From: Escherichia coli
GTDB lineage: Bacteria; Pseudomonadota; Gammaproteobacteria; Enterobacterales; Enterobacteriaceae
Assembly (NCBI RefSeq): GCF_030013595.1
Contig: NZ_CP122768.1
DNA: 64,000 nucleotides
Reading direction: 5' to 3' (one strand)
Both the position numbers and the translations under genes were made by a program. This document shows, in pieces, positions 42,995 through 60,766 of this stretch. The notes beneath the pieces are model-generated. The model saw only the letters and a list, made by a program, of their open reading frames with translations, was not told the DNA's origin and ran no database searches. How positions within the stretch are numbered: position 1 is the stretch's first letter; every line of letters begins with the position of its first letter.

Positions 42995-44293
42995 ATGGCT
43001 GAAAGTACTGTAACGGCAGACAGCAAACTGACAAGTAGTGATACTCGTCGCCGCATTTGGGCAATTGTGGGGGCCTCTTCAGGTAATCTGGTCGAGTGGT
43101 TCGATTTCTATGTCTACTCGTTCTGTTCACTCTACTTCGCCCACATCTTCTTCCCTTCCGGGAACACGACGACTCAACTACTGCAAACAGCAGGTGTTTT
43201 TGCTGCGGGATTTCTGATGCGCCCGATAGGCGGTTGGCTATTTGGCCGCATAGCCGATAAACATGGTCGCAAAAAATCGATGCTGTTATCGGTGTGTATG
43301 ATGTGTTTCGGCTCACTGGTTATCGCCTGTTTGCCAGGCTACGAAACAATCGGTACCTGGGCTCCGGCATTATTGCTTCTTGCTCGTTTATTCCAGGGAT
43401 TATCCGTTGGCGGAGAATATGGCACCAGCGCCACCTATATGAGTGAAGTTGCCGTTGAAGGGCGCAAAGGTTTTTACGCATCATTTCAGTATGTGACGTT
43501 GATCGGCGGGCAATTGCTAGCTCTACTGGTTGTCGTGGTTTTACAACACACCATGGAAGACGCTGCACTCAGAGAGTGGGGATGGCGTATTCCTTTCGCG
43601 TTAGGAGCTGTGTTAGCTGTTGTGGCGTTGTGGTTACGTCGTCAGTTAGATGAAACTTCACAACAAGAAACACGCGCTTTAAAAGAAGCTGGATCTCTGA
43701 AAGGATTATGGCGCAATCGCCGTGCATTCATCATGGTTCTCGGTTTTACCGCTGCGGGCTCCCTTTGTTTCTATACCTTCACCACTTATATGCAGAAGTA
43801 TCTGGTAAATACTGCGGGAATGCATGCCAACGTGGCGAGTGGCATTATGACTGCCGCATTGTTTGTATTCATGCTTATTCAACCACTTATTGGCGCGCTG
43901 TCGGATAAGATTGGTCGTCGTACCTCAATGTTATGTTTCGGTTCGCTGGCAACCATTTTTACCGTTCCTATTCTCTCAGCATTGCAGAACGTTTCTTCGC
44001 CTTATGCCGCTTTTGGTCTGGTGATGTGCGCCCTGCTGATAGTGAGTTTTTATACTTCAATCAGTGGAATACTGAAGGCTGAGATGTTCCCGGCACAGGT
44101 TCGCGCATTAGGCGTTGGTCTGTCATATGCGGTCGCCAATGCTATATTTGGTGGCTCAGCAGAGTATGTAGCGTTGTCGCTGAAATCAATAGGAATGGAA
44201 ACAGCCTTCTTCTGGTATGTGACCTTGATGGCCGTGGTGGCGTTTCTGGTTTCTTTGATGCTACATCGCAAAGGGAAGGGGATGCGCCTTTAA
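42995..44293 (+). CDS. kgtP: Alpha-ketoglutarate permease KgtP (MFS transporter)
   Basis: 432 aa, 12-TM MFS with [11 protein letters not shown] motif; matches recalled KgtP. Confidence 0.9.
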
Positions 44294-44634
44294 TTATGCG
44301 CCAACTGCCAGACGGTATAGCCAGTAGTTGCACCGGCGACATCCCAGGTAAAATCTTTCCAGCTCCAGCCGCTCCCCTCGGGGCGGCTATCCCAAAGTTC
44401 TTTTGACGCGCCCAGCCCAACAGAGAACATCAGCCCGAAAGTGGCACTGCGATCGCGACTCATCCCCTGATGCTGTGCATATTCATTTCCGGCGGCGGAA
44501 AGCATCGCCGAGGCGATAAAGTGTTGAGCTTTATCCTGCCCGCTCCAGCTATCGTTAGCCATATGGCTGCATCCAGAAAGTAACAATAGCGAGCAGACAA
44601 AAAGAATACGCAAAACGTGGCCTCCAAAAAACAA
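44290..44634 (-). CDS. yfiM: Lipoprotein YfiM
   Basis: Lipobox LLLSGCSH; ORF-track start is TTG, true start uncertain (alternative TTG at 44613); 3' end overlaps kgtP stop by 4 nt. Confidence 0.75.
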
Positions 44635-44658
44635 ACCCCGTACAGGACGGGGTTGTGA

Positions 44659-46017
44659 TTACAGGATGCGGCTAATTAATCGGTCGATGCGGATACGGCG
44701 CAAACGGCGGATGAGTTTACGAACCTTCACCGGATAATCGGCAATACTTTGCAGATCGCGATAGTGCTTAACGATGGTGGTATGCTCGCGGATCAGCTCC
44801 AGTTCTTTCTCTCGCTGCGGCGCAAGCTCCAGTTGTGGATCGTGGATCAAAATGGCGTTTTCCAGATCCAGACGCCAGGCGCGCGGGTTCAGGTTATTAC
44901 CGGTGATCAACATCCACTTATCATCAACCCACATCCCTTTCAGGTGATAGGTGTTGTCGTCATCTTTCCATAACCGAACCACTAGCTGGTCAGTATTGAC
45001 GTAATACTGCAAACGGCTCAGGAAACGACGCAGATTGATCTCATAGAGATAAGGCAATGCGCCAATTATCTTGAAAGGTTCATCTTCCGGAATGTAGAAG
45101 TCGTTCGCGGTTTTATCACCAACAATAATTTCGACCTTTTTCCCTTCGCGCAGCAACTGGATAATATTGCGCACAAGGATTGCTGGCAGGTTGAAGTATG
45201 GCGTACAGATGGTTAGTTTCTGCTCGGCACAAGGCATAAGATGGAAAATGGTCTTGTTCAACAGACTCGATTTCCCCAGCCCCACTAGCGGCGTTACGGA
45301 AAGCTGATCGTTGTCGGCATCGCCCTGGAAATGATAAGCGGCATCACGCAGCTCCTGGCGGAACAGACGAATATCGTTCTTGATTTCCGGGCTTTTTGGC
45401 CGATTAACATCATCCAGACGATTAACGCCGCGGCCATTCATAATATTCTGTGTAACCCATTCAAACATAATGTCTGACATCTTACGGTTACGGATCAGAT
45501 GATAACGGTCGTAGCGATATTTATCGTGCTGATGCAGGTAAACATCGTTCAGGCTGGCACCGCTATAAAGTACGCTATCGTCGATGATAAAGCCTTTAAA
45601 GTGCAGAACACCAAGGGCTTCACGGGTATTGATTGGCACGCCATAAACCGGAACATCTACGCCCGGATTTTCCTGCGCCATGCGGCAGTACCAGTCAGCG
45701 TTAGTGTTAGATGCCGCAGCGCCAATGCGTCCACGTTGTGCACGATGCCAGTCGACCAGCACCCGCACATCCAGTTCAGGACGCTGCCTTTTAGCCTCAT
45801 ACAACGCGTTCAGAATGCCTTTGCCACCGTCATCCTGTTCGAGATACAGGGCGACAATGCAAATGCGCTGCTTCGCGCTGGCTATTTTTTCCAGCAGCGT
45901 CTCCCGGAAGTCGGCGGGAGCGTAAAAGAAATCGACATCATCAACTGATTGAGAAATCTTGGGTAGTTGGGCAAGGTGTTGTTGATGTTTATTACGCTTA
46001 AATTTTGACAACATCAC
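44659..46017 (-). CDS. pssA: CDP-diacylglycerol--serine O-phosphatidyltransferase PssA (PLD superfamily)
   Basis: 451 aa, two HKD-like motifs (HFKGFIID, HLKGMWVD). Confidence 0.95.
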   Translation of the reverse strand: MMLSKFKRNKHQQHLAQLPKISQSVDDVDFFYAPADFRETLLEKIASAKQRICIVALYLEQDDGGKGILNALYEAKRQRPELDVRVLVDWHRAQRGRIGAAASNTNADWYCRMAQENPGVDVPVYGVPINTREALGVLHFKGFIIDDSVLYSGASLNDVYLHQHDKYRYDRYHLIRNRKMSDIMFEWVTQNIMNGRGVNRLDDVNRPKSPEIKNDIRLFRQELRDAAYHFQGDADNDQLSVTPLVGLGKSSLLNKTIFHLMPCAEQKLTICTPYFNLPAILVRNIIQLLREGKKVEIIVGDKTANDFYIPEDEPFKIIGALPYLYEINLRRFLSRLQYYVNTDQLVVRLWKDDDNTYHLKGMWVDDKWMLITGNNLNPRAWRLDLENAILIHDPQLELAPQREKELELIREHTTIVKHYRDLQSIADYPVKVRKLIRRLRRIRIDRLISRIL

Positions 46018-46127
46018 AGTGCATTTCTTCTCTGTTCATTGAAGGGTCCTCTGTGCAATGCAGACGACATAAGCGGGCAATAATAACACCAGTCCCGATT
46101 AAGTGGTCAACATTTCCAGTACCTTAC

Positions 46128-48788
46128 TCATGATTCCTCGCGCTGGGCAAGATTTAGCGTAAGCCCAACGATCCCCTCTTCGAGCTGGATATCAACGTTA
46201 AACCCGAGCTTGCGGGCCAGCGCCACCATGCCACGATTGTTTGGCATCGTAATACCATTCAGACGTTGCAGTCCGTGATCTCGCGTATAGGTAATCAACT
46301 TTTCCATTAAGCGTCGACCTAAGCCTAACCCTTTGAGATCCGAGCGAACCAGCACGGCAAATTCGGCATCGATGTTATCAGGGTCGGAGATCGCACGCGT
46401 GACGCCGAGGATCTCTTCCGTTTGTTCAATACGTCGTACTGCTACAAACGCCATTTCCCGATCGTAGTCGATCTGCGTCATGTTGGCTAAATCTTCATGG
46501 GTAAATTCGTTGATCTCGCTAAAGTAGCGGTAATAAAGATCTTCTTTGGTGACTCGCGAAATGAACTGCTGAAGTTGTGGCTCATCTTCTGGCAAAATCG
46601 GGCGGAACAAGCAGCGTTCACCGTTTTTCAATTCTACCCATTCTTCCAGCTGATGCGGATAAGGGCGCACTGCCAGCCGGCTCTCGTTATCGCCTTCAAA
46701 CGGCGCGATATCCAGCGTGACATCCAGCGCGGTAAATTCACTGCCAGAAGCCAGCAAAGGATGAATGTCCAGACGTTGAATTTCCGGGCAATCGACAATC
46801 AAGTTGGAAACCTGCACCAGAAGCTGGCTCAAGCCTGCAACATCCAATGGGCGTAGCGCACTGCGCGCACGAATCTTTTTACTTTTGATCCCCTGAATAA
46901 CCAGATAGCGGGCCAGGTTCATGTTTAGCGGCGGTAGTGCGACGACGGCTTGATCTTCAGGACGCCACTCCACACCGCCTTCGCCCAGCATGATCAACGG
47001 CCCGAAAACCGGATCGTGCTCAACCACAACCCGCAACTCCTGAGCGCCAGCACGGTTAGCCATACTTTGCACCAACAGGCCGTGGATCCGCGCCTGCGGC
47101 CAGGCCATTTTTACGCGATCGAAAATAGCGTTTGCCGCTTGCTGGACTTCATTAGCTGTACGCAGGTAGAGCATTACGCCCTGAACTTCCGATTTATGTG
47201 GAATATCCGGCGAACGCAATTTCAGCGCCACCGGATAACCAATCTGTTCGGCAATATGCACCGCTTCGGTGCTATCGCTGGCAATCCAGGTGGGGAGCGT
47301 GTTCATGCCATACGCTTGCAGGATGGGCTGAACTTCATGGGTATCGAGCGACGTAGCCCCTTCGGCAATCGCCTGTTGCAACAGAAGATGTGCTTCTGCG
47401 GTATTGGAGGTCAGATTGCTGGGCAACGCCGGCGTTTCGCGTAGTTGCTTCTGATTACGTCGGTACTCCACCATATGCATAAAAGCAGTGATGGTTCCTT
47501 CCGGCGTGCGATAGGTCGGCAGCCCGGCTTCACTGAATAATCGTCGTGCCTCTTGAGAGGAGTGCTCGCCGCACCAGTTCGTCAGCAGAGAAACATACTT
47601 GCTGCGGGGATGATGCTTTACCGCTTCAATTAATACTTGCGCGCTTTCTGTTGCGGGAGCAGCGGCGCTGGGCGAATGAATAACCATCAGCGCATCAAAA
47701 TCCTGGCTGTGGAGCAGAATGTCCAGCGTTTTGACATAATGCTCGCTGCTGGCGTCATCGCGTAGATCGAGCGGGTTAGAGATTGCCACATGTCCTGGCA
47801 GTGCATCGCGCAGTTTCTGGCAGGTTTCTTCGCTTAGCGTTGCCAGCTTGCCATTGCGTGACCATAAGGCATCCAGCGCCAGCGCGGCAGGCGCAGCACC
47901 GTTGCTGATAATCATCAACCGGTCGCCACGCAGCGGGCGCATATGGCTAAGGGTTTCCACCGCCGAAAACAGCTCGTGGGTGTCCTGTACCCGCAACAAA
48001 CCGGCACGCTGAATAGCCGCATCCCACGCCGGATCCATTCCTGCCGTGGTGTTCAACAGACGTTGAGCCGCCGGACTACGTCCGCTTTTAATCACCAGAA
48101 TCGGTTTATTGCGCGAGGCACTACGGGCCGCCGAAACAAAGCGTCGCGCGTCGCTTAACTGTTCGAGATAGAGCAGGATGGCGCTGGTTTTACTGTCGCG
48201 CGCCAGATAGTCGAGCAATTCATCAACGTCGATATCCAGGCTGTCGCCAAGCGCAATAAAGTAGGAAAAGCCCATCTCACGCTGTTGCGCCCAGTCGAGG
48301 ATGGTGTTGGAGACGGCAGCCGATTGCGAAATAAACGCCAGCTTGCCGCGTTTAATCGGCACAGGTGAAAAGCTGGCATTTAGACCTTGCCAGGGAGCCA
48401 GTAAACCCAGACTGTTTGGTCCTAGCAGGCGCATGTTATGGCGCAGGGCGCAGGCGCGGAGATCTTCGTGTTGCGATGCCGGGGCGGAAAGAATAATGCA
48501 GGTTTTACAGCCTTTCTCGCCGAGCTCTTCCAGAAGAGCAAGATTACGGCTGGCATTGGTACATAAAACCGCAAGGTCGGGTGTAAAGGGCAAGCTGGCA
48601 ATATCCGGCCAGGCCAACACACCCAACACCGCTTTCCAGGCAGGCGTCACCGGGAGTACCGGTCCGTTAAAGCCTCCCGCCAGCAGGTTACGCATCATCA
48701 GGTAACCTGCTCGATTGGGTTTCATCGATGCGCCAATTACCGCAATCGATTTTGGTCGCAATAGTGCTTCCAGTCCTCGCTGACTCAT
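46128..48788 (-). CDS. yfiQ: Protein lysine acetyltransferase YfiQ/PatZ/Pka (NDP-forming acyl-CoA synthetase-like plus GNAT domain)
   Basis: 886 aa, CoA-binding/ATP-grasp N-terminal region and C-terminal GNAT; matches recalled YfiQ. Confidence 0.9.
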   Translation of the reverse strand: MSQRGLEALLRPKSIAVIGASMKPNRAGYLMMRNLLAGGFNGPVLPVTPAWKAVLGVLAWPDIASLPFTPDLAVLCTNASRNLALLEELGEKGCKTCIILSAPASQHEDLRACALRHNMRLLGPNSLGLLAPWQGLNASFSPVPIKRGKLAFISQSAAVSNTILDWAQQREMGFSYFIALGDSLDIDVDELLDYLARDSKTSAILLYLEQLSDARRFVSAARSASRNKPILVIKSGRSPAAQRLLNTTAGMDPAWDAAIQRAGLLRVQDTHELFSAVETLSHMRPLRGDRLMIISNGAAPAALALDALWSRNGKLATLSEETCQKLRDALPGHVAISNPLDLRDDASSEHYVKTLDILLHSQDFDALMVIHSPSAAAPATESAQVLIEAVKHHPRSKYVSLLTNWCGEHSSQEARRLFSEAGLPTYRTPEGTITAFMHMVEYRRNQKQLRETPALPSNLTSNTAEAHLLLQQAIAEGATSLDTHEVQPILQAYGMNTLPTWIASDSTEAVHIAEQIGYPVALKLRSPDIPHKSEVQGVMLYLRTANEVQQAANAIFDRVKMAWPQARIHGLLVQSMANRAGAQELRVVVEHDPVFGPLIMLGEGGVEWRPEDQAVVALPPLNMNLARYLVIQGIKSKKIRARSALRPLDVAGLSQLLVQVSNLIVDCPEIQRLDIHPLLASGSEFTALDVTLDIAPFEGDNESRLAVRPYPHQLEEWVELKNGERCLFRPILPEDEPQLQQFISRVTKEDLYYRYFSEINEFTHEDLANMTQIDYDREMAFVAVRRIEQTEEILGVTRAISDPDNIDAEFAVLVRSDLKGLGLGRRLMEKLITYTRDHGLQRLNGITMPNNRGMVALARKLGFNVDIQLEEGIVGLTLNLAQREES

Positions 48789-48819
48789 ACCGGTCTCCCG
48801 CAGAAGTGACCGAATGATT

Positions 48820-49518
48820 TTAAACGCTTTCTAACTGTTCTGCTGTGATGCTACCCAGATGTTGCGTTTTTCCTGCCAGATAGCGTGTTTTAAAGCGGGT
48901 AAAATGCTCGCCTAACCCTGCCGCCGCCCCGGTATCGCCGGCCATATCTAACAGTGCGATGGCTACTTCGGCAGTACAATATTGGCCTTCAGCCTGGGCT
49001 TCACGCAGGCGATAGGCAGAAAGCCGGGAAAGATCGACGGAAATGACGGGAAGATTATCCAGATACGGACTTTTACGAAACATCTTGCGAGCTTCAGGCC
49101 AGGTACCATCGAGCATGATAAATAGCGGAGGCTTACCGGCAGGTGGTGTGAAGATCACTTCCCGTTGCTCATCAGCATACGAGGCGGGAAAGACCACCAT
49201 TGGCTGATAGTCCGGGTTTTGTACCAGATCCAGCAAATCTAGCGAGGGTTCGGTACGCGACCATTGAAACGCAACGGTATCAGGCAAAATATCAGCAATC
49301 AGACGCCCGGTATTACTGGGCTTCATTGGCTCGGTGTCGAACATCAGCAAACAGAAGCGACTTTTTGCTTGTGCTGGGGTAATTGTCGAACAGAGACATA
49401 ATTTCTCTGGCAAAAGACAGCGTTGGCAGCGACGAACGCGATTACCGCGGGCAAGAAAAGGACGTGTTGCGCGCGCAATACGCTCGGCGCGTAACTGGAG
49501 AACAGCGTTTTCGGTCAT
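48820..49518 (-). CDS. yfiP: DTW-domain protein YfiP (TapT-like tRNA aminocarboxypropyltransferase)
   Basis: CxxC...CxC motif and DGTW motif; start placed at internal ATG (MTENAVLQL...). Confidence 0.85.
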   Translation of the reverse strand: MTENAVLQLRAERIARATRPFLARGNRVRRCQRCLLPEKLCLCSTITPAQAKSRFCLLMFDTEPMKPSNTGRLIADILPDTVAFQWSRTEPSLDLLDLVQNPDYQPMVVFPASYADEQREVIFTPPAGKPPLFIMLDGTWPEARKMFRKSPYLDNLPVISVDLSRLSAYRLREAQAEGQYCTAEVAIALLDMAGDTGAAAGLGEHFTRFKTRYLAGKTQHLGSITAEQLESV

Positions 49519-49586
49519 AAGAGAGCGTCGAAAAAACGCCATTGTCGCAGAGGAGAAAACGGGGCACAAGATGCGCCCCGGTAAGA

Positions 49587-50006
49587 TTAAAGAGATTCGT
49601 TCAGCCAGCTATCAAACGGCGCTTTCGGTACTGCGCCATTAAGCATGTCGACAACCTGACCGTTTTTGAAAATCATGATCGTCGGTATACTACGAATTCC
49701 AAAGCGACTGCTTAATTCACGTTCAGCTTCGGTATTCACTTTCACAAAGCGCACTTTACCGCTACGCTCTTGCGCGACATCTTCAAAAATTGGTGCGAAA
49801 TTACGGCAGGGGCCGCACCACGGTGCCCAGAAGTCGATCACCACAGGTAGATCATCTTTCAGCAATTTGTCGAGCGTTTCACCGGTCGCGTTAATCACCT
49901 CTCCGTCAAACAAGTCGTGACCGCAGCGTCCGCATTTTGCCGCATCTTCGATCCGATCGTCGGGAATGCGATTGATGGCCTGACAATGGGTACAAACGGT
50001 ATTCAT
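49587..50006 (-). CDS. trxC: Thioredoxin 2 (TrxC) with N-terminal zinc-finger
   Basis: 139 aa, CxxC-x-CxxC zinc motif and WCGPC active site. Confidence 0.95.
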
Positions 50007-50212
50007 AACTAACCTCGGGATGAGTAAGGAGACTTATCGGCAACGACGCCGGTATGTTTCTAATATGTTACATATTATCGGGGACATTGTTCCAGACAAC
50101 AATCTGTTTTATTCAATAGGTATGATAGTCGTAGGCTTTGGTACGAAATCATGGCGAACCGCGCGGACTTCGGGTAATCTGCGCGCTTCGCGCAGCGCTG
50201 GTGGAGAAAAGC

Positions 50213-51250
50213 ATGAACGATGAAATGAAAGGTAAAAGCGGCAAGGTCAAAGTGATGTATGTCCGCAGTGATGATGATTCTGATAAACGTACCCACAACC
50301 CGCGTACCGGGAAAGGGGGCGGGCGTCCAGGAAAATCTCGTGCTGACGGTGGCCGTCGCCCCGCCCGCGATGACAAACAGAGTCAGCCCCGTGATCGCAA
50401 GTGGGAAGAGTCGCCGTGGCGCACAGTTTCCCGCGCGCCGGGTGATGAGACGCCGGAAAAGGCCGATCACGGTGGCATCAGTGGTAAAAGTTTTATTGAT
50501 CCGGAAGTGTTGCGTCGTCAGCGTGCGGAAGAAACCCGCGTCTACGGCGAAAATGCATGTCAGGCACTGTTCCAGAGCCGTCCGGAAGCGATTGTTCGCG
50601 CCTGGTTTATCCAGAGTGTAACGCCGCGTTTTAAAGAAGCCTTGCGCTGGATGGCAGCAAACCGCAAAGCGTACCATGTGGTAGATGAAGCGGAACTGAC
50701 AAAAGCGTCAGGCACGGAACATCACGGCGGCGTTTGCTTCCTGATCAAAAAGCGTAATGGTACAACCGTGCAGCAGTGGGTAAGCCAGGCAGGCGCGCAG
50801 GATTGTGTACTGGCGCTGGAAAACGAATCTAACCCGCATAACCTGGGTGGCATGATGCGCAGCTGCGCGCACTTCGGCGTGAAAGGCGTTGTGGTGCAGG
50901 ATGCGGCACTGCTGGAGTCGGGTGCGGCTATCCGTACCGCAGAAGGCGGCGCAGAGCACGTTCAGCCGATTACTGGCGACAACATTGTTAACGTGCTGGA
51001 TGATTTCCGTGAGGCAGGTTACACCGTAGTGACCACTTCCAGCGAGCAGGGGAAACCGCTGTTCAAAACCAGTCTGCCAGCGAAAATGGTACTGGTGCTG
51101 GGTCAGGAATATGAAGGGTTACCGGATGCCGCACGCGATCCGAACGATTTGCGCGTGAAGATTGATGGTACTGGCAACGTTGCCGGGCTAAATATCTCTG
51201 TTGCAACCGGTGTTTTGCTTGGTGAATGGTGGCGTCAGAATAAAGCCTGA
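50213..51250 (+). CDS. yfiF: SpoU-family RNA 2'-O-methyltransferase YfiF
   Basis: 345 aa from [14 protein letters not shown]; basic low-complexity N-terminus plus SpoU methylase domain; ORF-track start 50138 is an extension. Confidence 0.85.
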
Positions 51251-51297
51251 TAAATCAGCCGGGTGGCAACGCTGCCATCCGGCGTTTTCCTGCAAAT

Positions 51298-51987
51298 TTA
51301 CTCACTTTCTGCCGGTAATACTGGCATCCAGTCAATCGGTTTCTCGCCACGTTGTTCCAGCCACTGATTTGCCAGCACAAAATGGTTGCAGCCAAAGAAC
51401 CCACGATGCGCCGAAAGCGGTGATGGATGCGGCGCTTTCAGTACGTGATGGCGTTGTTTATCAATAATCGCCCCTTTCTTCTGTGCATGTGATCCCCACA
51501 ACAAAAACACCACGCCTTCGCGGTGCTGGTTAATCAGGCTGATGACTTTATCGGTGAAGGTCTCCCAGCCGAGGCTGGCGTGGGAATGCGCCTGACCTGC
51601 GCGAACCGTCAACACAGTATTGAGTAGCAGAACGCCCTGACGCGCCCAGCTTTCAAGATAACCATGATTAGGGCGGGTGAAACCGGGAATAGTATTTTCC
51701 AGCTCTTTATACATATTCAGCAGTGACGGCGGTGTCGCAATGCCGGGGCGAACGGAAAATGCCAGACCATGCGCCTGTCCCGGTCCGTGATAAGGATCCT
51801 GGCCGAGAATCACCACTTTAACGTCACCCAACTCTGTAAAGCGGAACGCGTTAAAGACATCCTTTTGTGGCGGATAGATAGTGACGCCGGACTGCCGCTC
51901 GCTGGCGACGGTCTGTAGGGTATTAAGAAAATAGGGTTGTTGCTTCTCTTCAGCCAGCACGTCATGCCAGGTTAATTCGTTTGCCAT
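51298..51987 (-). CDS. ung: Uracil-DNA glycosylase
   Basis: 229 aa, [20 protein letters not shown]..., GQDPYHG motif. Confidence 0.95.
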
Positions 51988-52117
51988 CTCGCTCTCCCGC
52001 GAATCTTCAATCCGCCTAGCTTAACTGCTTCTTTCTACAGAACAAAATCATGCTCATTTTTTAGACTTAAACGAGTGCAAAAAAATGTAAATTGGTAAAA
52101 TTTCACACCTGCATAAG

Positions 52118-52184
52118 TTGATGTAAAACAATAAAATCCATTTGCGACCATACTTGATGTGTGGTTTTTATTGATTTAAATCAA
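52118..52184 (+). promoter_or_regulatory. grcA (yfiD) promoter region with two FNR/CRP-type sites: TTGAT-GTAA-AACAA (52118-52131) and perfect TTGAT-TTAA-ATCAA (52171-52184), centres 53 bp apart
   Basis: Palindromes read from sequence; arrangement matches the known tandem FNR sites of yfiD. Confidence 0.6.
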
Positions 52185-52291
52185 AGATTCAAGGGTGTTT
52201 GAGGAGTATATATACACTCAAGCAACAATAGTTTTACCAATTGGCCGCGACAGGCTGAACAAATCAAATAATTTTGCCGGGGAGGCATCAC

Positions 52292-52675
52292 ATGATTACA
52301 GGTATCCAGATTACTAAAGCCGCTAACGACGATCTGCTGAACTCTTTCTGGCTGCTGGACAGCGAAAAAGGCGAAGCGCGTTGCATCGTTGCGAAAGCAG
52401 GTTTTGCAGAAGACGAAGTGGTTGCAGTAAGCAAACTGGGTGACATTGAGTACCGTGAAGTTCCAGTAGAAGTGAAACCAGAAGTTCGCGTTGAAGGTGG
52501 TCAACACCTGAACGTAAACGTTCTGCGTCGTGAAACTCTGGAAGATGCAGTTAAGCATCCGGAAAAATATCCGCAGCTGACCATCCGTGTATCCGGTTAT
52601 GCAGTTCGCTTTAACTCTCTGACTCCGGAACAGCAGCGCGACGTTATCGCTCGTACCTTTACTGAAAGCCTGTAA
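52292..52675 (+). CDS. grcA: Autonomous glycyl radical cofactor GrcA (YfiD)
   Basis: 127 aa from [33 protein letters not shown]...[13 protein letters not shown] glycyl-radical motif. Confidence 0.95.
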
Positions 52676-52697
52676 GGCTTAAGTAGCAAGTTACTAA

Positions 52698-52727
52698 GCG
52701 GAAGAGGGCGACCTCTTCCGCTTTTTT
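52698..52727. terminator. Bidirectional intrinsic terminator between convergent grcA and eamB (GCGGAAGAG-loop-CTCTTCCGC + T6)
   Basis: 9-bp perfect stem followed by TTTTTT. Confidence 0.65.
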
Positions 52728-52729
52728 CA

Positions 52730-53317
52730 TTAATAGAAAATGCGTACCGCGCAATAGACCAGCAGCAGCGCGAGCACGATATTTAACTGGCGACCATACT
52801 GGCGAAACAATCGCTGAAACAGGTGCCCCGCCAGCGCCCAGCACACATTGCCAAACGTCCCAATCATCGCCAGCAAAACGCTGACGCCAACTACCCAGCT
52901 TAGCGCCTGCGTTTGCGGCAGGACAAACGTCGACAGTGCCGTAACGCCATACAAAATGATTTTGACGTTCACAAACTGCAAAGCAAAGCTGGCCCAAAAG
53001 CTGATTGGTTTTGCCTGAAGTCCGTCTTCCTTTGTTGGACTGGTAGCGATTTTCCATGCCAGCCAGACAATGTATGCCGCTCCTGCCCAGCTCAACAGAT
53101 GCACTGCTGCCGGGTCGATAACAGCCAGTGAAAACGAAATTCCCGCACACAGCAACATGACGATTAAAAATCCCAGACTCATCCCTGCCAGCACGCGGGT
53201 ACTCTGACGAAATCCGTGCGATGTGGCTGAGCTAAGGGCGAGAATATTGTTCGGTCCTGGCGTCATGGCGGTAATCAGGGTGTAAGTCCAAAAAGCACTT
53301 AAAAGGGTCGGTGTCAC
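52730..53317 (-). CDS. eamB: Cysteine/O-acetylserine efflux protein EamB (YfiK, LysE family)
   Basis: 195 aa, 6-TM LysE-type protein matching recalled EamB. Confidence 0.9.
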   Translation of the reverse strand: MTPTLLSAFWTYTLITAMTPGPNNILALSSATSHGFRQSTRVLAGMSLGFLIVMLLCAGISFSLAVIDPAAVHLLSWAGAAYIVWLAWKIATSPTKEDGLQAKPISFWASFALQFVNVKIILYGVTALSTFVLPQTQALSWVVGVSVLLAMIGTFGNVCWALAGHLFQRLFRQYGRQLNIVLALLLVYCAVRIFY

Positions 53318-53419
53318 TTGTTATCTCCTCTGTTTTGGTAGACAGTACCCGACACGTAACATTTAAAAAAATGAATGTTTTTACATTCTAAATTCGATAT
53401 TTTCGATAGGTTTGGGGTT

Positions 53420-54301
53420 ATGGATCTGCGCCGTTTTATTACGCTTAAAACTGTGGTGGAAGAGGGTTCCTTTTTGCGAGCTTCGCAAAAATTGTGCTGC
53501 ACACAATCGACGGTGACTTTTCATATTCAGCAGCTTGAGCAGGAGTTCTCAGTCCAGTTATTTGAGAAAATTGGTCGACGAATGTGCCTTACCCGCGAAG
53601 GAAAAAAGCTGCTGCCGCACATCTATGAACTCACCAGAGTGATGGATACCCTTCGTGAGGCTGCCAAAAAAGAGTCGGATCCGGACGGGGAACTACGCGT
53701 TGTTTCAGGCGAAACGTTGCTTTCTTACCGAATGCCGCAGGTGTTGCAGCGTTTTCGGCAACGCGCACCAAAAGTGCGTTTATCGTTGCAGTCTCTGAAC
53801 TGTTACGTGATCCGTGATGCGCTACTGAATGATGAGGCTGATGTCGGCGTCTTTTACCGCGTAGGGAATGATGATGCTCTGAACCGACGAGAGTTGGGTG
53901 AACAATCACTGGTGCTGGTGGCTTCACCGCAAATTAAAGATGTCGATTTTACTGAGCCGGGAAGACATAACGCCTGTAGTTTTATTATCAATGAACCGCA
54001 ATGTGTCTTCCGCCAGCTATTTGAGAGCACGCTGCGCCAGCGACGGATCACGGTGGAAAACACCATTGAGCTTATAAGTATCGAAAGCATCAAGCGTTGT
54101 GTCGCGGCAAATATCGGGGTCAGTTACCTGCCGCGCTTTACAGTGGCAAATGAACTTGCGAGTGGCGAATTAATCGAATTGCCTTTTGGCGAACAGTCGC
54201 AGACCATTACGGCAATGTGCGCTCACCATGCCGGAAAAGCGGTTAGCCCGGCGATGCACATTTTTATTCAGTGTGTTGAAGAGTGTTTTTTGCCGGGATA
54301 A
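53420..54301 (+). CDS. yfiE: LysR-family transcriptional regulator YfiE
   Basis: 293 aa from MDLRRFITLKTVVEEGSFLRASQKL (LysR HTH); divergent from eamB. Confidence 0.85.
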   Translation: MDLRRFITLKTVVEEGSFLRASQKLCCTQSTVTFHIQQLEQEFSVQLFEKIGRRMCLTREGKKLLPHIYELTRVMDTLREAAKKESDPDGELRVVSGETLLSYRMPQVLQRFRQRAPKVRLSLQSLNCYVIRDALLNDEADVGVFYRVGNDDALNRRELGEQSLVLVASPQIKDVDFTEPGRHNACSFIINEPQCVFRQLFESTLRQRRITVENTIELISIESIKRCVAANIGVSYLPRFTVANELASGELIELPFGEQSQTITAMCAHHAGKAVSPAMHIFIQCVEECFLPG

Positions 54302-54305
54302 AAAT

Positions 54306-54329
54306 AATGCCGGGCTTAAACCCGGCATT
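54306..54329. terminator. Hairpin between convergent yfiE and srmB (AATGCCGGG-loop-CCCGGCATT)
   Basis: 9-bp inverted repeat; T-run present on minus strand side. Confidence 0.5.
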
Positions 54330-54333
54330 GAGA

Positions 54334-55668
54334 TTACTCTTCTGTCGTTTGCGGTGGCACGCCCGTTCCGCTCGGTTTACGGCGCTTACCAATATTTTTG
54401 GTGTCGCGATGGCGTTTTTTCACCCGCGGCTTCTCTTTCTCTTTAGCTTTTTTCTTCTCGGCGCGTTTTGCCAGTACTTTCTTCGATGGCTTGCCGGTCT
54501 GCTTCTCGCTTGGCGCACGCGTTTTCGGGCGTAACTCATCAATTACACGAGCTTTAATTGGCTCTTCAATATAGCGACCAACTTTGCCCAGCAGCAGATG
54601 GTCATGGGCTTCTACCAGCGAAATTGCGGTGCCTTTACGACCGGCGCGCGCGGTACGTCCGATACGGTGCAAATAAGTATCACCACTGCGCGGCATATCG
54701 AAGTTAAAGACGTGGCTGACGTCTGGAATGTCGATACCGCGTGCAGCAACGTCGGTGGCAACCAGTACGTTTACGCGGCCTTCGGTCAAACGCTTGATCG
54801 CTTCGTTACGCTTGCCCTGTACCATCTCACCTTCGAGATAGCAGTTGTTGATGCCCGCTTCGCGCAGCCAGTTTGCCAGCTCATGCACACGCTCACGCTT
54901 ACGCACAAACACAATTGAGCGGGTCGCTTCCGGCTGTTTTAACAGATGCACCAGCAATGCGGTTTTATGTTCCAGGTCATCGGCGCGGTAATACCACTGA
55001 TGAATTTTTTTGCGCTCACGGGTGGACGGATTGGCAGAAACCTCCACCGGATCTTCCAGCAGACGCTCGGCAAAGTCCTGAATCGCATCGCCTTCCAGCG
55101 TTGCCGAAAAGAGCAGGGTCTGTTTACGCCAGCGCGTTTCGCCAGCAATATGTTCGATATCCTGAGCGAAGCCCATATCCAGCATACGGTCTGCTTCGTC
55201 GAGAATCAGCGTTTCAACCGCGCGGCAATCGAAGTTCTCTTCTTTTATGTATTGCAGCAGACGTCCGGTCGTGGCGACCACGATGTCCTGATTTTCGCTG
55301 AACACTTCCGCGTGGTTCATATAGGCTACGCCGCCGGTGATGGTGGCGATATCCAGATGCGTATGTTTCGCCAGTTCGCGGGCATGATCGGCCACCTGCA
55401 TCGCCAGCTCGCGAGTTGGGGTGAGGATCAAAATACGCGGCGGACCGGATTTCTTACGTGGGAAATCGAGCAGGTGCTGCAACGCTGGCAGCAGATACGC
55501 CGCCGTTTTACCGGTGCCTGTCGGCGCAGAACCGAGTACATCACGGCCATCGAGCGCAGGCGGAATGGCGGCAGCCTGAATGGCGGTCGGGCGAGTGAAA
55601 CCTTTATCCTGGAGGGCTTCCAGCAGGCTTTCGTCGAGTTCAAGTTCGGAAAAAGTCGTTACAGTCAT
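54334..55668 (-). CDS. srmB: ATP-dependent RNA helicase SrmB (DEAD-box)
   Basis: 444 aa, motifs [27 protein letters not shown]; lysine-rich C-terminus. Confidence 0.95.
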
Positions 55669-55799
55669 GTTCTACCTCTGTGTGGGGCGCTGATTATAGA
55701 CGTTACGGCTGCAATCTTCATCTGTTTGTATGGATATCGCTTCTCGGGTATTGTTCTCACCCGGTGCTATCGCCGTTTTTCCTGCAAGGTTTTATTTTC

Positions 55800-56537
55800 A
55801 TGTCACAGTCTACATCCGTGCTTCGTCGTAATGGATTTACTTTTAAACAGTTTTTTGTTGCTCACGATCGTTGTGCGATGAAAGTGGGAACGGATGGCAT
55901 TTTGCTGGGCGCATGGGCACCGGTGGCTGGGGTAAAACGTTGCCTTGATATCGGCGCGGGTAGCGGGTTGCTGGCATTAATGCTGGCGCAGCGAACCGAT
56001 GACAGCGTAATGATTGATGCAGTTGAACTGGAAAGTGAAGCTGCCGCGCAGGCGCAGGAAAATATCAACCAGTCCCCGTGGGCAGAGCGGATTAACGTCC
56101 ATACGGCGGATATTCAGCAGTGGATCACACAGCAGACAGTACGCTTCGATTTAATCATCAGTAACCCACCTTACTATCAGCAGGGAGTAGAGTGCTCGAC
56201 ACCTCAACGGGAACAGGCTCGCTATACCACTACGCTTGATCACCCATCGTTGCTGACCTGTGCGGCGGAGTGCATTACCGAAGAGGGATTTTTCTGCGTG
56301 GTGCTGCCAGAGCAGATTGGTAATGGTTTTACTGAACTGGCATTAAGTATGGGCTGGCATTTACGTTTGCGGACGGATGTGGCGGAAAACGAAGCGCGAC
56401 TGCCGCATCGGGTGCTGCTGGCATTCTCCCCGCAGGCGGGAGAATGCTTTAGCGATCGCTTAGTCATTCGTGGGCCAGACCAGAACTATTCCGAAGCGTA
56501 TACGGCGCTGACCCAGGCTTTTTATCTGTTTATGTAA
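55800..56537 (+). CDS. yfiC: tRNA1(Val) (adenine37-N6)-methyltransferase YfiC (TrmN6)
   Basis: 245 aa from [19 protein letters not shown]; NPPY motif (IISNPPYY); 3' end overlaps nadB 3' end by 16 nt. Confidence 0.85.
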
Positions 56538-58144
56538 TGATTGCCGGGGGAAAGGATCGATGGACCGGAATGCGTGAGCAGTTCCGGATAATCCAGCGTG
56601 AAATGCAACCCCCGACTCTCCTTGCGCATCATCGCACAGCAAACAATCAACTCGGCAACCTGTACCAGATTACGCAGCTCCAGCAAATTATTTGAGACGC
56701 GGAAATGGGCGTAATATTCGTCTATTTCTTGTTGGAGCATGGTTATCCGCCGCAGGGCGCGTTCCAGGCGCTTCGTTGTGCGCACAATGCCAACGTAATC
56801 CCACATAAACAGACGTAGCTCGTGCCAGTTATGTTGAATCACCACCCGTTCGTCAGGGTTCTCAACGCGGCTTTCATCCCACGGCGGTAACGTACTGACG
56901 CCGTGGGCATAAGGCATACATCTGGTGATATCTTCTGCCGCCGACCAGCCATAGACCAGACACTCCAGCAAGGAGTTAGAGGCCATGCGGTTAGCGCCGT
57001 GTAAGCCGGTATAACTCACTTCGCCAATGGCATACAAACCCTCGACGTCCGTACGCCCATGATCATCAACCATTACACCACCGCAGGTATAGTGTGCAGC
57101 AGGCACAATCGGTACCGGTTCTTGTGTGAGATCAATCCCCAGCCCGAGCAACTTTTCATAGATCATCGGGAAATGCTGGCGAATAAAATCGGCAGGCTTA
57201 TGGCTGATGTCGAGATACATACAATCCGCACCGAGGCGTTTCATTTCATGATCAATAGCGCGGGCGACAATATCGCGCGGGGCCAGTTCGCCGCGCTCAT
57301 CGAAATCGGGCATAAAACGCGTGCCATCCGGGCGCTTGAGATAAGCGCCTTCGCCGCGCAGTGCTTCTGTTAACAGGAAATTGCGTGCCTGTGGGTGATA
57401 CAGTGCGGTAGGGTGGAACTGATTAAATTCGAGATTGGCAACCCGGCAGCCTGCGCGCCACGCCATAGCAATGCCATCGCCAGAAGAAATATCTGGATTG
57501 GTGGTGTACTGATAAACCTTCGACGCACCGCCGGTTGCCAGTACCACTGCTTTTGCGTGGCAGGTTTCCACCGTTTCTTTATTTCGGTTCCATACCCACG
57601 CGCCAACAACCCGTCGCGTGCCCGGCAGGCCAATTTTGTCAGAGACAATCAGATCAACCGCGTTGCTGCGCTCCAGCACACGAATATTCGGATGGTTCTG
57701 CGCCTTGCTCACCAGCGTGGATTGTACTTCTCTACCGGTGGCGTCGGCGGCATGAAGAATACGACGGTGACTATGTCCACCTTCACGGGTCAGATGGTAG
57801 CTTTCTTCGCCATTCGGTTGAACGTGGGTATCAAACAAAACCCCCTGGTCAATTAACCATTGCACACAGGAACGAGCATTGCTGGCGACAAATTCAACTG
57901 CATGGCGATCGCAAATACCAGCCCCGGCAATCAATGTGTCTTCCACATGCGAGTCAATGCTGTCAGTTTCATCAAACACGGCGGCAATACCGCCCTGGGC
58001 ATAAAATGTTGAACCTTCCGTTACCGGGCCTTTACTTAGAACGATGACCTGATGCTGATCAGCCAGGCGCAGCGCCAGTGAAAGTCCGGCTGCGCCGCTA
58101 CCGATAATCAACACGTCACATGAATGATCAGGGAGAGTATTCAT
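56522..58144 (-). CDS. nadB: L-aspartate oxidase NadB
   Basis: 540 aa, FAD-binding GSGAAGLS motif, matches recalled NadB. Confidence 0.95.
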
Positions 58145-58399
58145 TTTCTTTGTTTAATTTACTAAACACGGTTTGGTCAGCATAGCATCATGTTGTGCGA
58201 TTAAACACCTGCTATTTTAATATTTGTTACAGTGGCTAAACACGCTGACGCAGGGCGGCGAGAAAAAGAGAAGTTACTGGCTGGTGGAGGATTAGGTGGT
58301 GAAATAAAAAGGCCGTTGGGTTACTCTTCAGGCAGTTAAATGGGCATTTCTACACAGATAATGCGATGTTCAGATTCTGTAGACTTATAATGATAGATA

Positions 58400-58555
58400 A
58401 TGATCCGTCTACAGCATGACAAACAAAAACAGATGCGTTACGGAACTTTACAAAAACGAGACACTCTAACCCTTTGCTTGCTCAAATTGCAGCTAATGGA
58501 GTGGCGTTTCGATAGCGCGTGGAAATTTGGTTTGGGGAGACTTTACCTCGGATGA
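58400..58555 (+). CDS. rseD: Small leader ORF upstream of rpoE (51 codons, MIRLQHDKQKQMRYGTLQKRDTLTLCLLKLQLMEWRFDSAWKFGLGRLYLG), stop overlapping rpoE start as ATGA; consistent with rseD
   Basis: Translated by hand in the +1 frame relative to rpoE; ATG at 58400, TGA at 58553-58555; too short for the supplied ORF track. Confidence 0.5.
   Translation: MIRLQHDKQKQMRYGTLQKRDTLTLCLLKLQLMEWRFDSAWKFGLGRLYLG
58442..58469 (+). promoter_or_regulatory. SigmaE-dependent rpoE promoter (-35 GGAACTT, 16 bp, -10 TCTAA)
   Basis: Match to sigmaE consensus; corresponds to the autoregulated rpoE promoter. Confidence 0.6.
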
Positions 58556-59127
58556 GCGAGCAGTTAACGGACCAGGTCCTGGTTGAACGGGTCCAGAAGG
58601 GAGATCAGAAAGCCTTTAACTTACTGGTAGTGCGCTATCAGCATAAAGTGGCGAGTCTGGTTTCCCGCTATGTGCCGTCGGGTGATGTTCCCGATGTGGT
58701 ACAAGAAGCTTTTATTAAAGCCTATCGTGCGCTGGATTCGTTCCGGGGAGATAGCGCTTTTTATACATGGCTGTATCGGATTGCTGTAAATACAGCGAAA
58801 AATTACCTGGTTGCTCAGGGGCGTCGTCCACCTTCCAGTGATGTGGATGCCATTGAAGCTGAAAACTTCGAAAGTGGCGGCGCGTTGAAAGAAATTTCGA
58901 ACCCTGAGAACTTAATGTTGTCAGAAGAACTGAGACAGATAGTTTTCCGAACTATTGAGTCCCTCCCGGAAGATTTACGCATGGCAATAACCTTGCGGGA
59001 GCTGGATGGCCTGAGCTATGAAGAGATAGCCGCTATCATGGATTGTCCGGTAGGTACGGTGCGTTCACGTATCTTCCGAGCGAGGGAAGCTATTGATAAC
59101 AAAGTTCAACCGCTTATCAGGCGTTGA
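58552..59127 (+). CDS. rpoE: RNA polymerase sigma factor RpoE (sigma-24, ECF)
   Basis: 191 aa from MSEQLTDQVLVERVQKGDQKAFNLLVVRYQHKVASLV; ORF-track start 58519 is an in-frame extension. Confidence 0.95.
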   Translation: MSEQLTDQVLVERVQKGDQKAFNLLVVRYQHKVASLVSRYVPSGDVPDVVQEAFIKAYRALDSFRGDSAFYTWLYRIAVNTAKNYLVAQGRRPPSSDVDAIEAENFESGGALKEISNPENLMLSEELRQIVFRTIESLPEDLRMAITLRELDGLSYEEIAAIMDCPVGTVRSRIFRAREAIDNKVQPLIRR

Positions 59128-59159
59128 CGATAGCGGGATACTGGATAAGGGTATTAGGC

Positions 59160-59810
59160 ATGCAGAAAGAACAACTTTCCGCTTTAATGGATGGCGAAAC
59201 GCTGGATAGTGAGCTGCTTAACGAACTGGCTCATAACCCAGAAATGCAGAAAACCTGGGAAAGCTATCACTTAATCCGTGACTCAATGCGGGGTGATACT
59301 CCCGAGGTGCTCCATTTCGATATCTCTTCACGCGTGATGGCCGCCATTGAAGAAGAGCCAGTACGTCAACCGGCGACATTGATCCCGGAAGCCCAGCCTG
59401 CGCCGCATCAATGGCAGAAAATGCCATTCTGGCAGAAAGTACGTCCGTGGGCGGCACAGCTTACCCAAATGGGCGTAGCCGCATGCGTATCGCTTGCAGT
59501 TATCGTTGGCGTCCAGCACTATAATGGACAATCTGAAACGTCCCAGCAGCCCGAAACGCCGGTATTTAATACACTGCCGATGATGGGTAAAGCCAGCCCG
59601 GTAAGCCTGGGAGTACCTTCTGAAGCGACCGCAAACAATGGTCAACAGCAGCAGGTACAGGAGCAGCGTCGTCGCATTAATGCAATGTTGCAGGATTACG
59701 AACTGCAACGCCGACTCCACTCTGAACAGCTTCAGTTTGAGCAGGCGCAAACCCAGCAAGCCGCTGTACAGGTGCCAGGAATTCAAACTTTAGGAACGCA
59801 ATCGCAGTAA
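59160..59810 (+). CDS. rseA: Anti-sigma-E factor RseA
   Basis: 216 aa from MQKEQLSALMDGETLDSELLNELAHNPEMQKTW. Confidence 0.9.
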   Translation: MQKEQLSALMDGETLDSELLNELAHNPEMQKTWESYHLIRDSMRGDTPEVLHFDISSRVMAAIEEEPVRQPATLIPEAQPAPHQWQKMPFWQKVRPWAAQLTQMGVAACVSLAVIVGVQHYNGQSETSQQPETPVFNTLPMMGKASPVSLGVPSEATANNGQQQQVQEQRRRINAMLQDYELQRRLHSEQLQFEQAQTQQAAVQVPGIQTLGTQSQ

Positions 59811-60766
59811 TGAAGCAACTTTGGTTTGCCATGTCATTAGTGACAGGTAGCCTGTTATTCTCTGCTAACGCCTCGGCCACTCCCGCGTCCGGGGCGTTAT
59901 TACAGCAGATGAACCTGGCCAGTCAGTCACTGAATTACGAGCTGTCATTCATCAGCATCAATAAACAGGGTGTTGAGTCTCTGCGTTATCGACATGCACG
60001 CCTCGATAACCGTCCTCTTGCACAATTGTTGCAAATGGATGGCCCGCGCCGGGAAGTGGTACAGCGCGGCAATGAAATCAGCTATTTTGAACCGGGACTT
60101 GAACCGTTCACGCTTAATGGCGATTACATTGTTGATTCTCTGCCATCGCTCATCTATACCGATTTCAAACGCCTTTCTCCTTACTACGACTTTATCTCCG
60201 TCGGGCGGACGCGTATTGCTGATCGTCTTTGCGAAGTTATTCGCGTGGTTGCCCGAGATGGTACACGCTACAGCTACATCGTGTGGATGGACACCGAATC
60301 GAAATTACCGATGAGGGTTGATCTCCTTGATCGCGATGGTGAAACGCTGGAACAATTTCGCGTGATTGCTTTTAATGTCAATCAGGAAATCAGCAGCAGT
60401 ATGCAGACGCTGGCGAAGGCAAATTTGCCGCCGTTGCTTTCTGTTCCTGTAGGTGAAAAAGCTAAATTCAGCTGGACGCCAACCTGGTTGCCACAGGGTT
60501 TTAGCGAAGTTTCCAGTAGTCGACGTCCGCTACCGACGATGGACAACATGCCTATCGAATCACGTCTCTATTCCGACGGATTATTCAGCTTCTCGGTAAA
60601 CGTTAACCGCGCTACGCCATCGAGCACCGATCAGATGTTGCGCACCGGGCGCAGAACCGTCAGTACAAGCGTACGTGATAACGCCGAAATCACCATTGTC
60701 GGTGAACTGCCGCCGCAAACGGCGAAACGCATTGCCGAGAATATTAAGTTCGGGGCAGCGCAATGA
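59810..60766 (+). CDS. rseB: Sigma-E regulatory protein RseB
   Basis: 318 aa with signal peptide, start overlaps rseA stop. Confidence 0.95.
   Translation: MKQLWFAMSLVTGSLLFSANASATPASGALLQQMNLASQSLNYELSFISINKQGVESLRYRHARLDNRPLAQLLQMDGPRREVVQRGNEISYFEPGLEPFTLNGDYIVDSLPSLIYTDFKRLSPYYDFISVGRTRIADRLCEVIRVVARDGTRYSYIVWMDTESKLPMRVDLLDRDGETLEQFRVIAFNVNQEISSSMQTLAKANLPPLLSVPVGEKAKFSWTPTWLPQGFSEVSSSRRPLPTMDNMPIESRLYSDGLFSFSVNVNRATPSSTDQMLRTGRRTVSTSVRDNAEITIVGELPPQTAKRIAENIKFGAAQ

Follow-up and report, generated by a model that had tools for sequence, protein, structure and literature searches.

The DNA from position 52100 to 52291 of the window (the whole 64-kb stretch of Escherichia coli DNA that was analysed) is the promoter and 5′ leader of grcA (yfiD), as identified from the sequence and the ORF list. 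The locus is almost certainly the E. coli yfiD/grcA promoter with its two FNR sites. The initial annotation had reported tandem FNR-type palindromes upstream of grcA, including a perfect TTGAT-N4-ATCAA, with centres 53 bp apart; both palindromes were located, and their centres, at 52124.5 and 52177.5, are separated by that distance when measured directly. The dual-FNR grcA promoter is already known in detail, and its mechanism gains nothing new here. The geometry of the box pair across species extends this known biology; it does not define a new kind of system.

The ung-grcA locus

A 304-bp spacer (51988-52291) separates the divergent genes ung and grcA, the latter starting with the ATG at 52292 (Table 1). 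Its GC content is 37%, compared with 52% for the 64-kb window. The spacer has a copy number of 1 in 5,425 of 5,426 complete E. coli genomes, where it is annotated as upstream of grcA. It shares 301 of 304 bases with K-12 MG1655. The three SNPs lie at 51998, 52110 and 52230, none of them within the FNR boxes, and 52230 alone falls in a known element, the PdhR box. The encoded GrcA differs from the K-12 protein solely by Y38F; codon 38 (52403-52405) specifies Phe here and Tyr in K-12, and the Phe form is that of the E. albertii protein and a common variant.

Table 1. Features of the ung-grcA region, in window coordinates.
Feature	Position	Strand	Basis or remark
ung (uracil-DNA glycosylase), divergent neighbour	51298..51987	-	bounds the regulatory spacer; ORF list, K-12 annotation
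Distal FNR box, TTGATGTAAAACAA	52118..52131		1 mismatch to TTGAT-N4-ATCAA; centre 52124.5 = -93.5
Inter-box spacer, 39 bp	52132..52170		fixed length, variable sequence
Proximal FNR box, TTGATTTAAATCAA	52171..52184		0 mismatches, palindrome; centre 52177.5 = -40.5
Probable -10 element, TATATA	52207..52212	+	cross-species conservation with loci aligned at the proximal box; distance to the start putative
Predicted ArcA region, three weak direct-repeat elements	52208..52239	-	coordinate conversion from Park 2013
grcA transcription start	52218	+	converted from K-12 coordinates in the literature
PdhR repressor box in the leader, centre ~ +17	52226..52242		Anzai 2020 box, K-12 alignment
Shine-Dalgarno GGAGG, 6 nt 5′ of the ATG	52281..52285	+	sequence; invariant among E. 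coli alleles
grcA (yfiD) CDS, 127 aa, autonomous glycyl-radical cofactor	52292..52675	+	ORF list, RefSeq annotation of identical sequence, protein comparison
grcA intrinsic terminator, strong	52696..52723	+	12-bp stem then T run; terminator scan

Two further observations concern the surroundings of the promoter. The 16 kb from 44000 to 60000 of the window are 100% identical to the pig isolates HCP5S3_I2 and LCP30S3_I5, and the next best genomes reach 99.0%. A conserved AT-rich block at 52076-52100 precedes the distal FNR box by ~30-45 bp in most Enterobacterales (loci L009-L085), with the consensus TGAAAATTTACAAAA and the E. coli version TGCAAAAAAATGTAAATTGGTAAAA. This block could be part of the ung promoter or the site of another factor.

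Agreement with the characterised K-12 promoter

The characterised K-12 yfiD promoter, as later papers cite it from Green, Baldwin & Richardson 1998 and Marshall et al. 2001, has FNR sites at -40.5 and -93.5, and the present locus is the same one. K-12 and the window agree in gene neighbours, boxes, 53-bp spacing, -10 region, leader and Shine-Dalgarno sequence, and the box pair is base-for-base the same.

Published constructs and genome-wide data identify these boxes as the mapped sites. According to the PMC10208419 supplement, the yfiD promoters of Green 1998 and Marshall 2001 were rebuilt there from oligonucleotides. The wild-type yfiD forward primer begins acccgcataagttgatgtaaaaca. The 'yfiD-m' primer (acccgcataagttTatgtaaaaAaataaaatcc...) alters exactly the G and C of TTGATGTAAAACAA and is termed an 'FNR II' core-motif substitution; the 78-bp 'yfiD-P1' begins 3′ of the distal box, retains TTGATTTAAATCAA alone and is termed an upstream-FNR-site deletion (PMC10208419). 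The published yfiD constructs respond to oxygen, and under full anaerobiosis the output of both yfiD-m and yfiD-P1 is far above that of the wild type (PMC10208419). In the yfiD/ung region, two PWM-scored FNR sites are listed, TTGATTTAAATCAA at 2714579 with a score of 17.25 and TTGTTTTACATCAA at 2714632 with a score of 13.87 (Myers 2013, PMC3688515). They are 53 bp apart and map exactly onto 52171-52184 and 52118-52131, respectively. The K-12 FNR ChIP-seq peak at 2,714,605 falls between both boxes, and yfiD is classed as FNR-activated with its activating site at -40.5 (Myers 2013, PMC3688515).

The K-12 alignment, the constructs and the Myers 2013 sites thus bear out the match to the known dual-FNR yfiD/grcA architecture proposed in the initial annotation, and the division of labour that it described, activation from the proximal site and down-modulation from the distal one, agrees with the published functional description. 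For the present strain we infer in vivo FNR occupancy, the regulatory signs and the start site by transfer from K-12, on the basis of sequence identity.

Promoter core, start site and leader

Published K-12 coordinates were placed on the window by an inferred conversion (window position = 2768741 - U00096.3 coordinate; U00096.3 = U00096.2 + 1978), anchored on grcA at 2716066-2716449 in U00096.3. Position 52218 is reached as the transcription start both from the ArcA site of Park 2013 (-10/+22) and from the proximal FNR box of Myers 2013 (-40.5). With +1 at 52218, the FNR boxes are centred at -40.5 and -93.5. In K-12, the mapped start is adjoined by a ChIP peak of sigma-70 at 2714546 (Myers 2013, PMC3688515).

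A strict consensus scan of the region found no sigma-70 promoter. This is expected, because the promoter is activator-dependent, and it does not count as evidence against a start at this position. The TATA core at 52207-52210 of the probable -10 element is near-invariant across species. It is preceded by an extended TGn in many other genera, where E. coli has GAG, and the hexamer sits one base nearer the mapped start than in the canonical arrangement.

The leader comprises 74 nt (52218-52291). Its predicted fold, compared with shuffled sequences, revealed no significant structure (z = -0.30), and an Rfam scan of 51900-52800 gave no match near the gathering score, only sub-threshold noise of the miRNA type. 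A structured or known RNA in the region was rejected on these two grounds.

Conservation of the box pair

For the cross-species set, GTDB representative genomes were scanned once with GrcA, which yielded 80 loci, or 81 including the window. An FNR-type box pair lies upstream of grcA in 62 of the 81 loci (window counted). The offset between the boxes is exactly 53 bp in 56 of these 62 and 52 bp in the other 6; every offset other than 53 bp occurs at most six times among the 81 loci. The pair is present in Escherichia, Citrobacter, Enterobacter, Klebsiella, Kosakonia, Cedecea, Hafnia and Edwardsiella, and also in Yersinia, Serratia, Rahnella, Dickeya, Pectobacterium, Brenneria, Erwinia and Mixta. 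Synteny of ung and grcA is kept in 61/61 loci having the pair. The distance from the proximal box to the ATG ranges from 110 to 160 bp.

The distal box might serve the ung promoter, placing ung under FNR control instead of, or besides, damping grcA. Its position is 137.5 bp 5′ of the ung start codon, and both genes share the spacer. Across loci, however, the distal box sits anywhere from 112 to 300 bp from the ung start but holds a constant 53 bp to the proximal box of grcA, which ties it to the grcA promoter rather than to ung. Mutation of the distal box raises output in isolated 130-bp constructs free of ung (PMC10208419), and no FNR control of ung was found in the sources searched. A role in ung expression is thus very unlikely.

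As parts of the grcA promoter, the two boxes differ in quality. Of the 62 paired loci, 36 have a perfect proximal box. The distal box is perfect in none: 49 copies carry one mismatch and 13 carry two, with a right arm that reads AACAA in 43/62 and AACAT in 10/62. Such an asymmetry is a prediction of the affinity-difference model. Because the distal box never reaches consensus in 62 loci and its offset is fixed, the comparison suggests that low distal affinity is under selection across Enterobacterales; the conserved imperfection would serve to hold affinity low. It also suggests that the microaerobic peak of expression is an ancient, conserved design and not a peculiarity of K-12. Conserved FNR control of yfiD has been noted before (PMC1805755). 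We found no statement in the literature of the fixed 53-bp geometry or of an always-imperfect distal box.

Within E. coli, both 14-bp boxes are unchanged in seven alleles whose spacers range from 100% to 93.8% identity. Most substitutions among these alleles fall in the 39 bp between the boxes, including the TTGAT at 52154. A 79-bp query spanning both boxes is merely 90-95% identical in 2,943 E. coli genomes.

Other lineages show other layouts. In Pasteurellaceae (L048-L078), the 200 bp upstream of grcA contain two FNR-type boxes 42-44 bp apart (for example L060, L053, L050, L065 and L071), and a near-consensus -35 with an extended -10 (TTGAnn...TGATAAAAT) lies just 3′ of the boxes. This dual-site layout differs from that of Enterobacterales. 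Pantoea (L054, L069, L075) and Plesiomonas (L081) carry a single FNR-type box and lack the distal 53-bp box, so that the damping site was lost or never present in these lineages.

Sequence and statistics of the FNR boxes

Both boxes are inverted repeats of the FNR type, with TTGA and TCAA cores 6 bp apart. TTGAT-N4-ATCAA has one perfect match in the 64-kb window, the proximal grcA box. Allowing up to one mismatch gives five matches, two of which are the grcA boxes. With up to two mismatches, 41 matches were observed in the window and 31 expected, which is no enrichment; the signal therefore lies in the quality and the pairing of the two boxes. We estimated how often chance would produce them from 400,000 first-order Markov simulations of 304-bp sequences. 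The composition of the spacer itself (GC 0.37) was used because the spacer is AT-rich relative to the window. A perfect FNR box arose with P = 0.0015, and a perfect box together with a second, non-overlapping box of at most one mismatch with P = 4.8e-5. No simulated pair had a spacing of 52-54 bp in 400,000 sequences. Chance origin of the box pair is excluded.

CRP and FNR form one family and recognise related inverted repeats, and the palindromes could belong to CRP, alone or together with FNR, at a promoter that answers carbon source and not oxygen. The proximal box has three mismatches to TGTGA-N6-TCACA. Three-mismatch matches to this consensus are, however, at background (394 in the window), and the best match in the spacer also has three; the box cores read TTGA...TCAA and not GTGA...TCAC. 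On the strength of the background-level consensus scan and the wrong cores, CRP sites were rejected. The presence of FNR at both boxes by ChIP-seq and PWM (Myers 2013, PMC3688515) and the oxygen response of the published constructs (PMC10208419) also count against CRP, a reading that we consider extremely improbable. That the FNR boxes are instead functionless AT-rich palindromes, thrown up by chance in a spacer of 37% GC for a motif unenriched at up to two mismatches, has a negligible probability and is already refuted by the composition-matched simulation (P ~ 5e-5 for the pair), by the invariance of the boxes within E. coli where the DNA between them varies, by the 53-bp pair in 56 species and by published binding and mutational data.

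DNA between the boxes

Among E. coli strains, no other part of the ung-grcA spacer is as polymorphic as the 39 bp between the FNR boxes; across 56 species their length is constant. They contain an imperfect inverted repeat, ACCATAC (52147-52153) and GTGTGGT (52159-52165), and a T5 tract at 52165-52169. Folded as DNA, the repeat is distinct from shuffled sequence at z = -5.5 but reaches just -3.6 kcal/mol. The repeat is confined to Escherichia, Citrobacter, Enterobacter and related genera and may serve as a protein-binding site or as a bending tract. An IHF ChIP-chip signal is flagged over this region (Myers 2013, PMC3688515).

Two other assignments in the inter-box DNA were rejected. The hairpin at 52146-52166 was considered as a terminator; it lies upstream of the start, no upstream gene reads toward it, and it occurs in only a few genera. 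The TTGAT at 52154-52158 was considered as a third FNR half-site; it is a half-site only and mutates freely among E. coli strains.

PdhR and ArcA elements

Anzai 2020 assigns a PdhR box, AATTGGTaaaACCAtTg, to position 2714529, between grcA and ung, and describes the GGTnnnACC core as necessary for tight PdhR binding. Among the rows of its Table 1 that are listed, the grcA/ung gSELEX peak of 6,197 ranks second, after pdhR at 9,889. In the aligned leader, K-12 has CAATGGTTTTACCAATT and the window has CAATAGTTTTACCAATT, owing to a G-to-A change at 52230. Positions 52230-52238 accordingly read AGTTTTACC: the GGTnnnACC core has become AGTnnnACC, and the intact core of a AATTGGTnnnACCAATT box is not present. 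By alignment, the leader element is the ortholog of the known PdhR box, with its core mutated in this strain. Since the GGT of the core reads AGT, the box is predicted to be a weaker one than almost all other E. coli carry. The A allele at 52230 may partly release grcA from PdhR repression.

The allele is rare. A 41-mer from K-12 that covers the start site and the PdhR box, and contains GGTTTTACC, is found exactly in 5,399 of 5,425 E. coli genomes. The corresponding 41-mer of the window, with A at 52230, is found exactly in 5 of 5,425 complete E. coli genomes, all of them pig-derived. Across species, the PdhR box and core are kept in about 50 of the 80 loci, the box mostly with 1-2 mismatches.

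Like grcA, the PdhR-repressed promoters pdhR-aceEF-lpd, ndh and cyoABCDE have a AATTGGTnnnACCAATT-type box just 3′ of the start. As with those promoters, the grcA/ung gSELEX peak is among the strongest in the listed rows of Anzai 2020. Unlike them, the box in the window has AGT instead of GGT in its core.

As a separate observation, other swine ETEC carry this grcA-promoter allele, yet they are only 98.9% identical over the 16 kb from 44000 to 60000. This combination suggests transfer of the promoter allele between strain backgrounds, or mosaic flanks.

A scan with a simple ArcA direct-repeat consensus gave background-level matches only and was rejected as a guide, and the published site was therefore adopted. 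The Park 2013 supplement lists this site, TGGTAAAACCATTGTTGCTTGAGTGTATATAT, at 2714524-2714555 (-10/+22), and the K-12 ArcA ChIP peaks of that study lie at 2714537 and 2714570. The sign of the ArcA effect differs between reports. In the Park 2013 data, the effect on yfiD is negative; Wyborn 2002 is cited for a positive effect, and Park 2013 reads the ArcA activation of Wyborn 2002 as disrupted FNR binding.

Proposed mechanism and comparison with related promoters

The arrangement described above is consistent with the following scheme. As oxygen falls, [4Fe-4S]-FNR dimers would first fill the perfect, high-affinity box at -40.5 (52171-52184). FNR bound there, overlapping the -35 region of a promoter that lacks a usable -35 element, would recruit RNA polymerase as a class II activator. 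Transcription from ~52218 would then yield the 74-nt leader followed by grcA. Under full anaerobiosis, the larger pool of active FNR would also fill the weaker box at -93.5 (52118-52131), and the upstream dimer, five helical turns away on the same face of the DNA, would damp activation. Because the distal box damps only once active FNR rises under full anaerobiosis, expression would peak under microaerobic conditions, when GrcA is needed: GrcA would act as a spare glycyl-radical domain that repairs oxygen-cleaved pyruvate formate-lyase. PdhR bound at +17 (52226-52242) would add repression that is relieved by pyruvate, and ArcA would also bind, from -10 to +22.

Published observations on K-12 agree with several of these steps. 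FNR at -93.5 suppresses activation from -40.5, and alpha-CTD is not involved (PMC3445967). Expression of yfiD is maximal under microaerobic conditions (PMC10208419). The gene is induced on an anaerobic-to-microaerobic shift, and its regulation is annotated as ArcA(+), FNR(+/-) and PdhR(-). Nothing in the sequence was found to contradict the dual-FNR explanation.

Simple class II FNR promoters such as dmsA, narG and nirB, with one site near -41.5, resemble the proximal half of this promoter, where the proximal box overlaps the -35 region and stands in for it. yfiD is listed among the operons that FNR activates directly from sites at -40.5 or -41.5 (Myers 2013, PMC3688515). The grcA promoter differs from the simple class II promoters in its second, weaker box, which gives a peak at intermediate oxygen and not a plain switch. 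The distal half resembles CRP at -117.5 of guaB and in tandem-CRP test promoters, where, as at yfiD, an upstream activator-type protein lowers transcription (PMC3445967). The CRP cases act through the alpha-CTD of RNA polymerase, in contrast to yfiD, where damping proceeds without alpha-CTD (PMC3445967).

The grcA promoter is a textbook case of a non-monotonic response produced by one transcription factor and two sites of different affinity, and it is already in use as an oxygen-responsive part in metabolic engineering. The conserved 53-bp geometry and the imperfection of the distal box in many genera of Enterobacterales support the affinity-difference model. We advance tentatively, as possible but somewhat short of probable, the joint proposal that the A at 52230 partly releases grcA from PdhR and that low affinity of the distal box has been selected across Enterobacterales, making the microaerobic peak ancient. 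If the release from PdhR is real, a pig-associated lineage would make more GrcA at low pyruvate.
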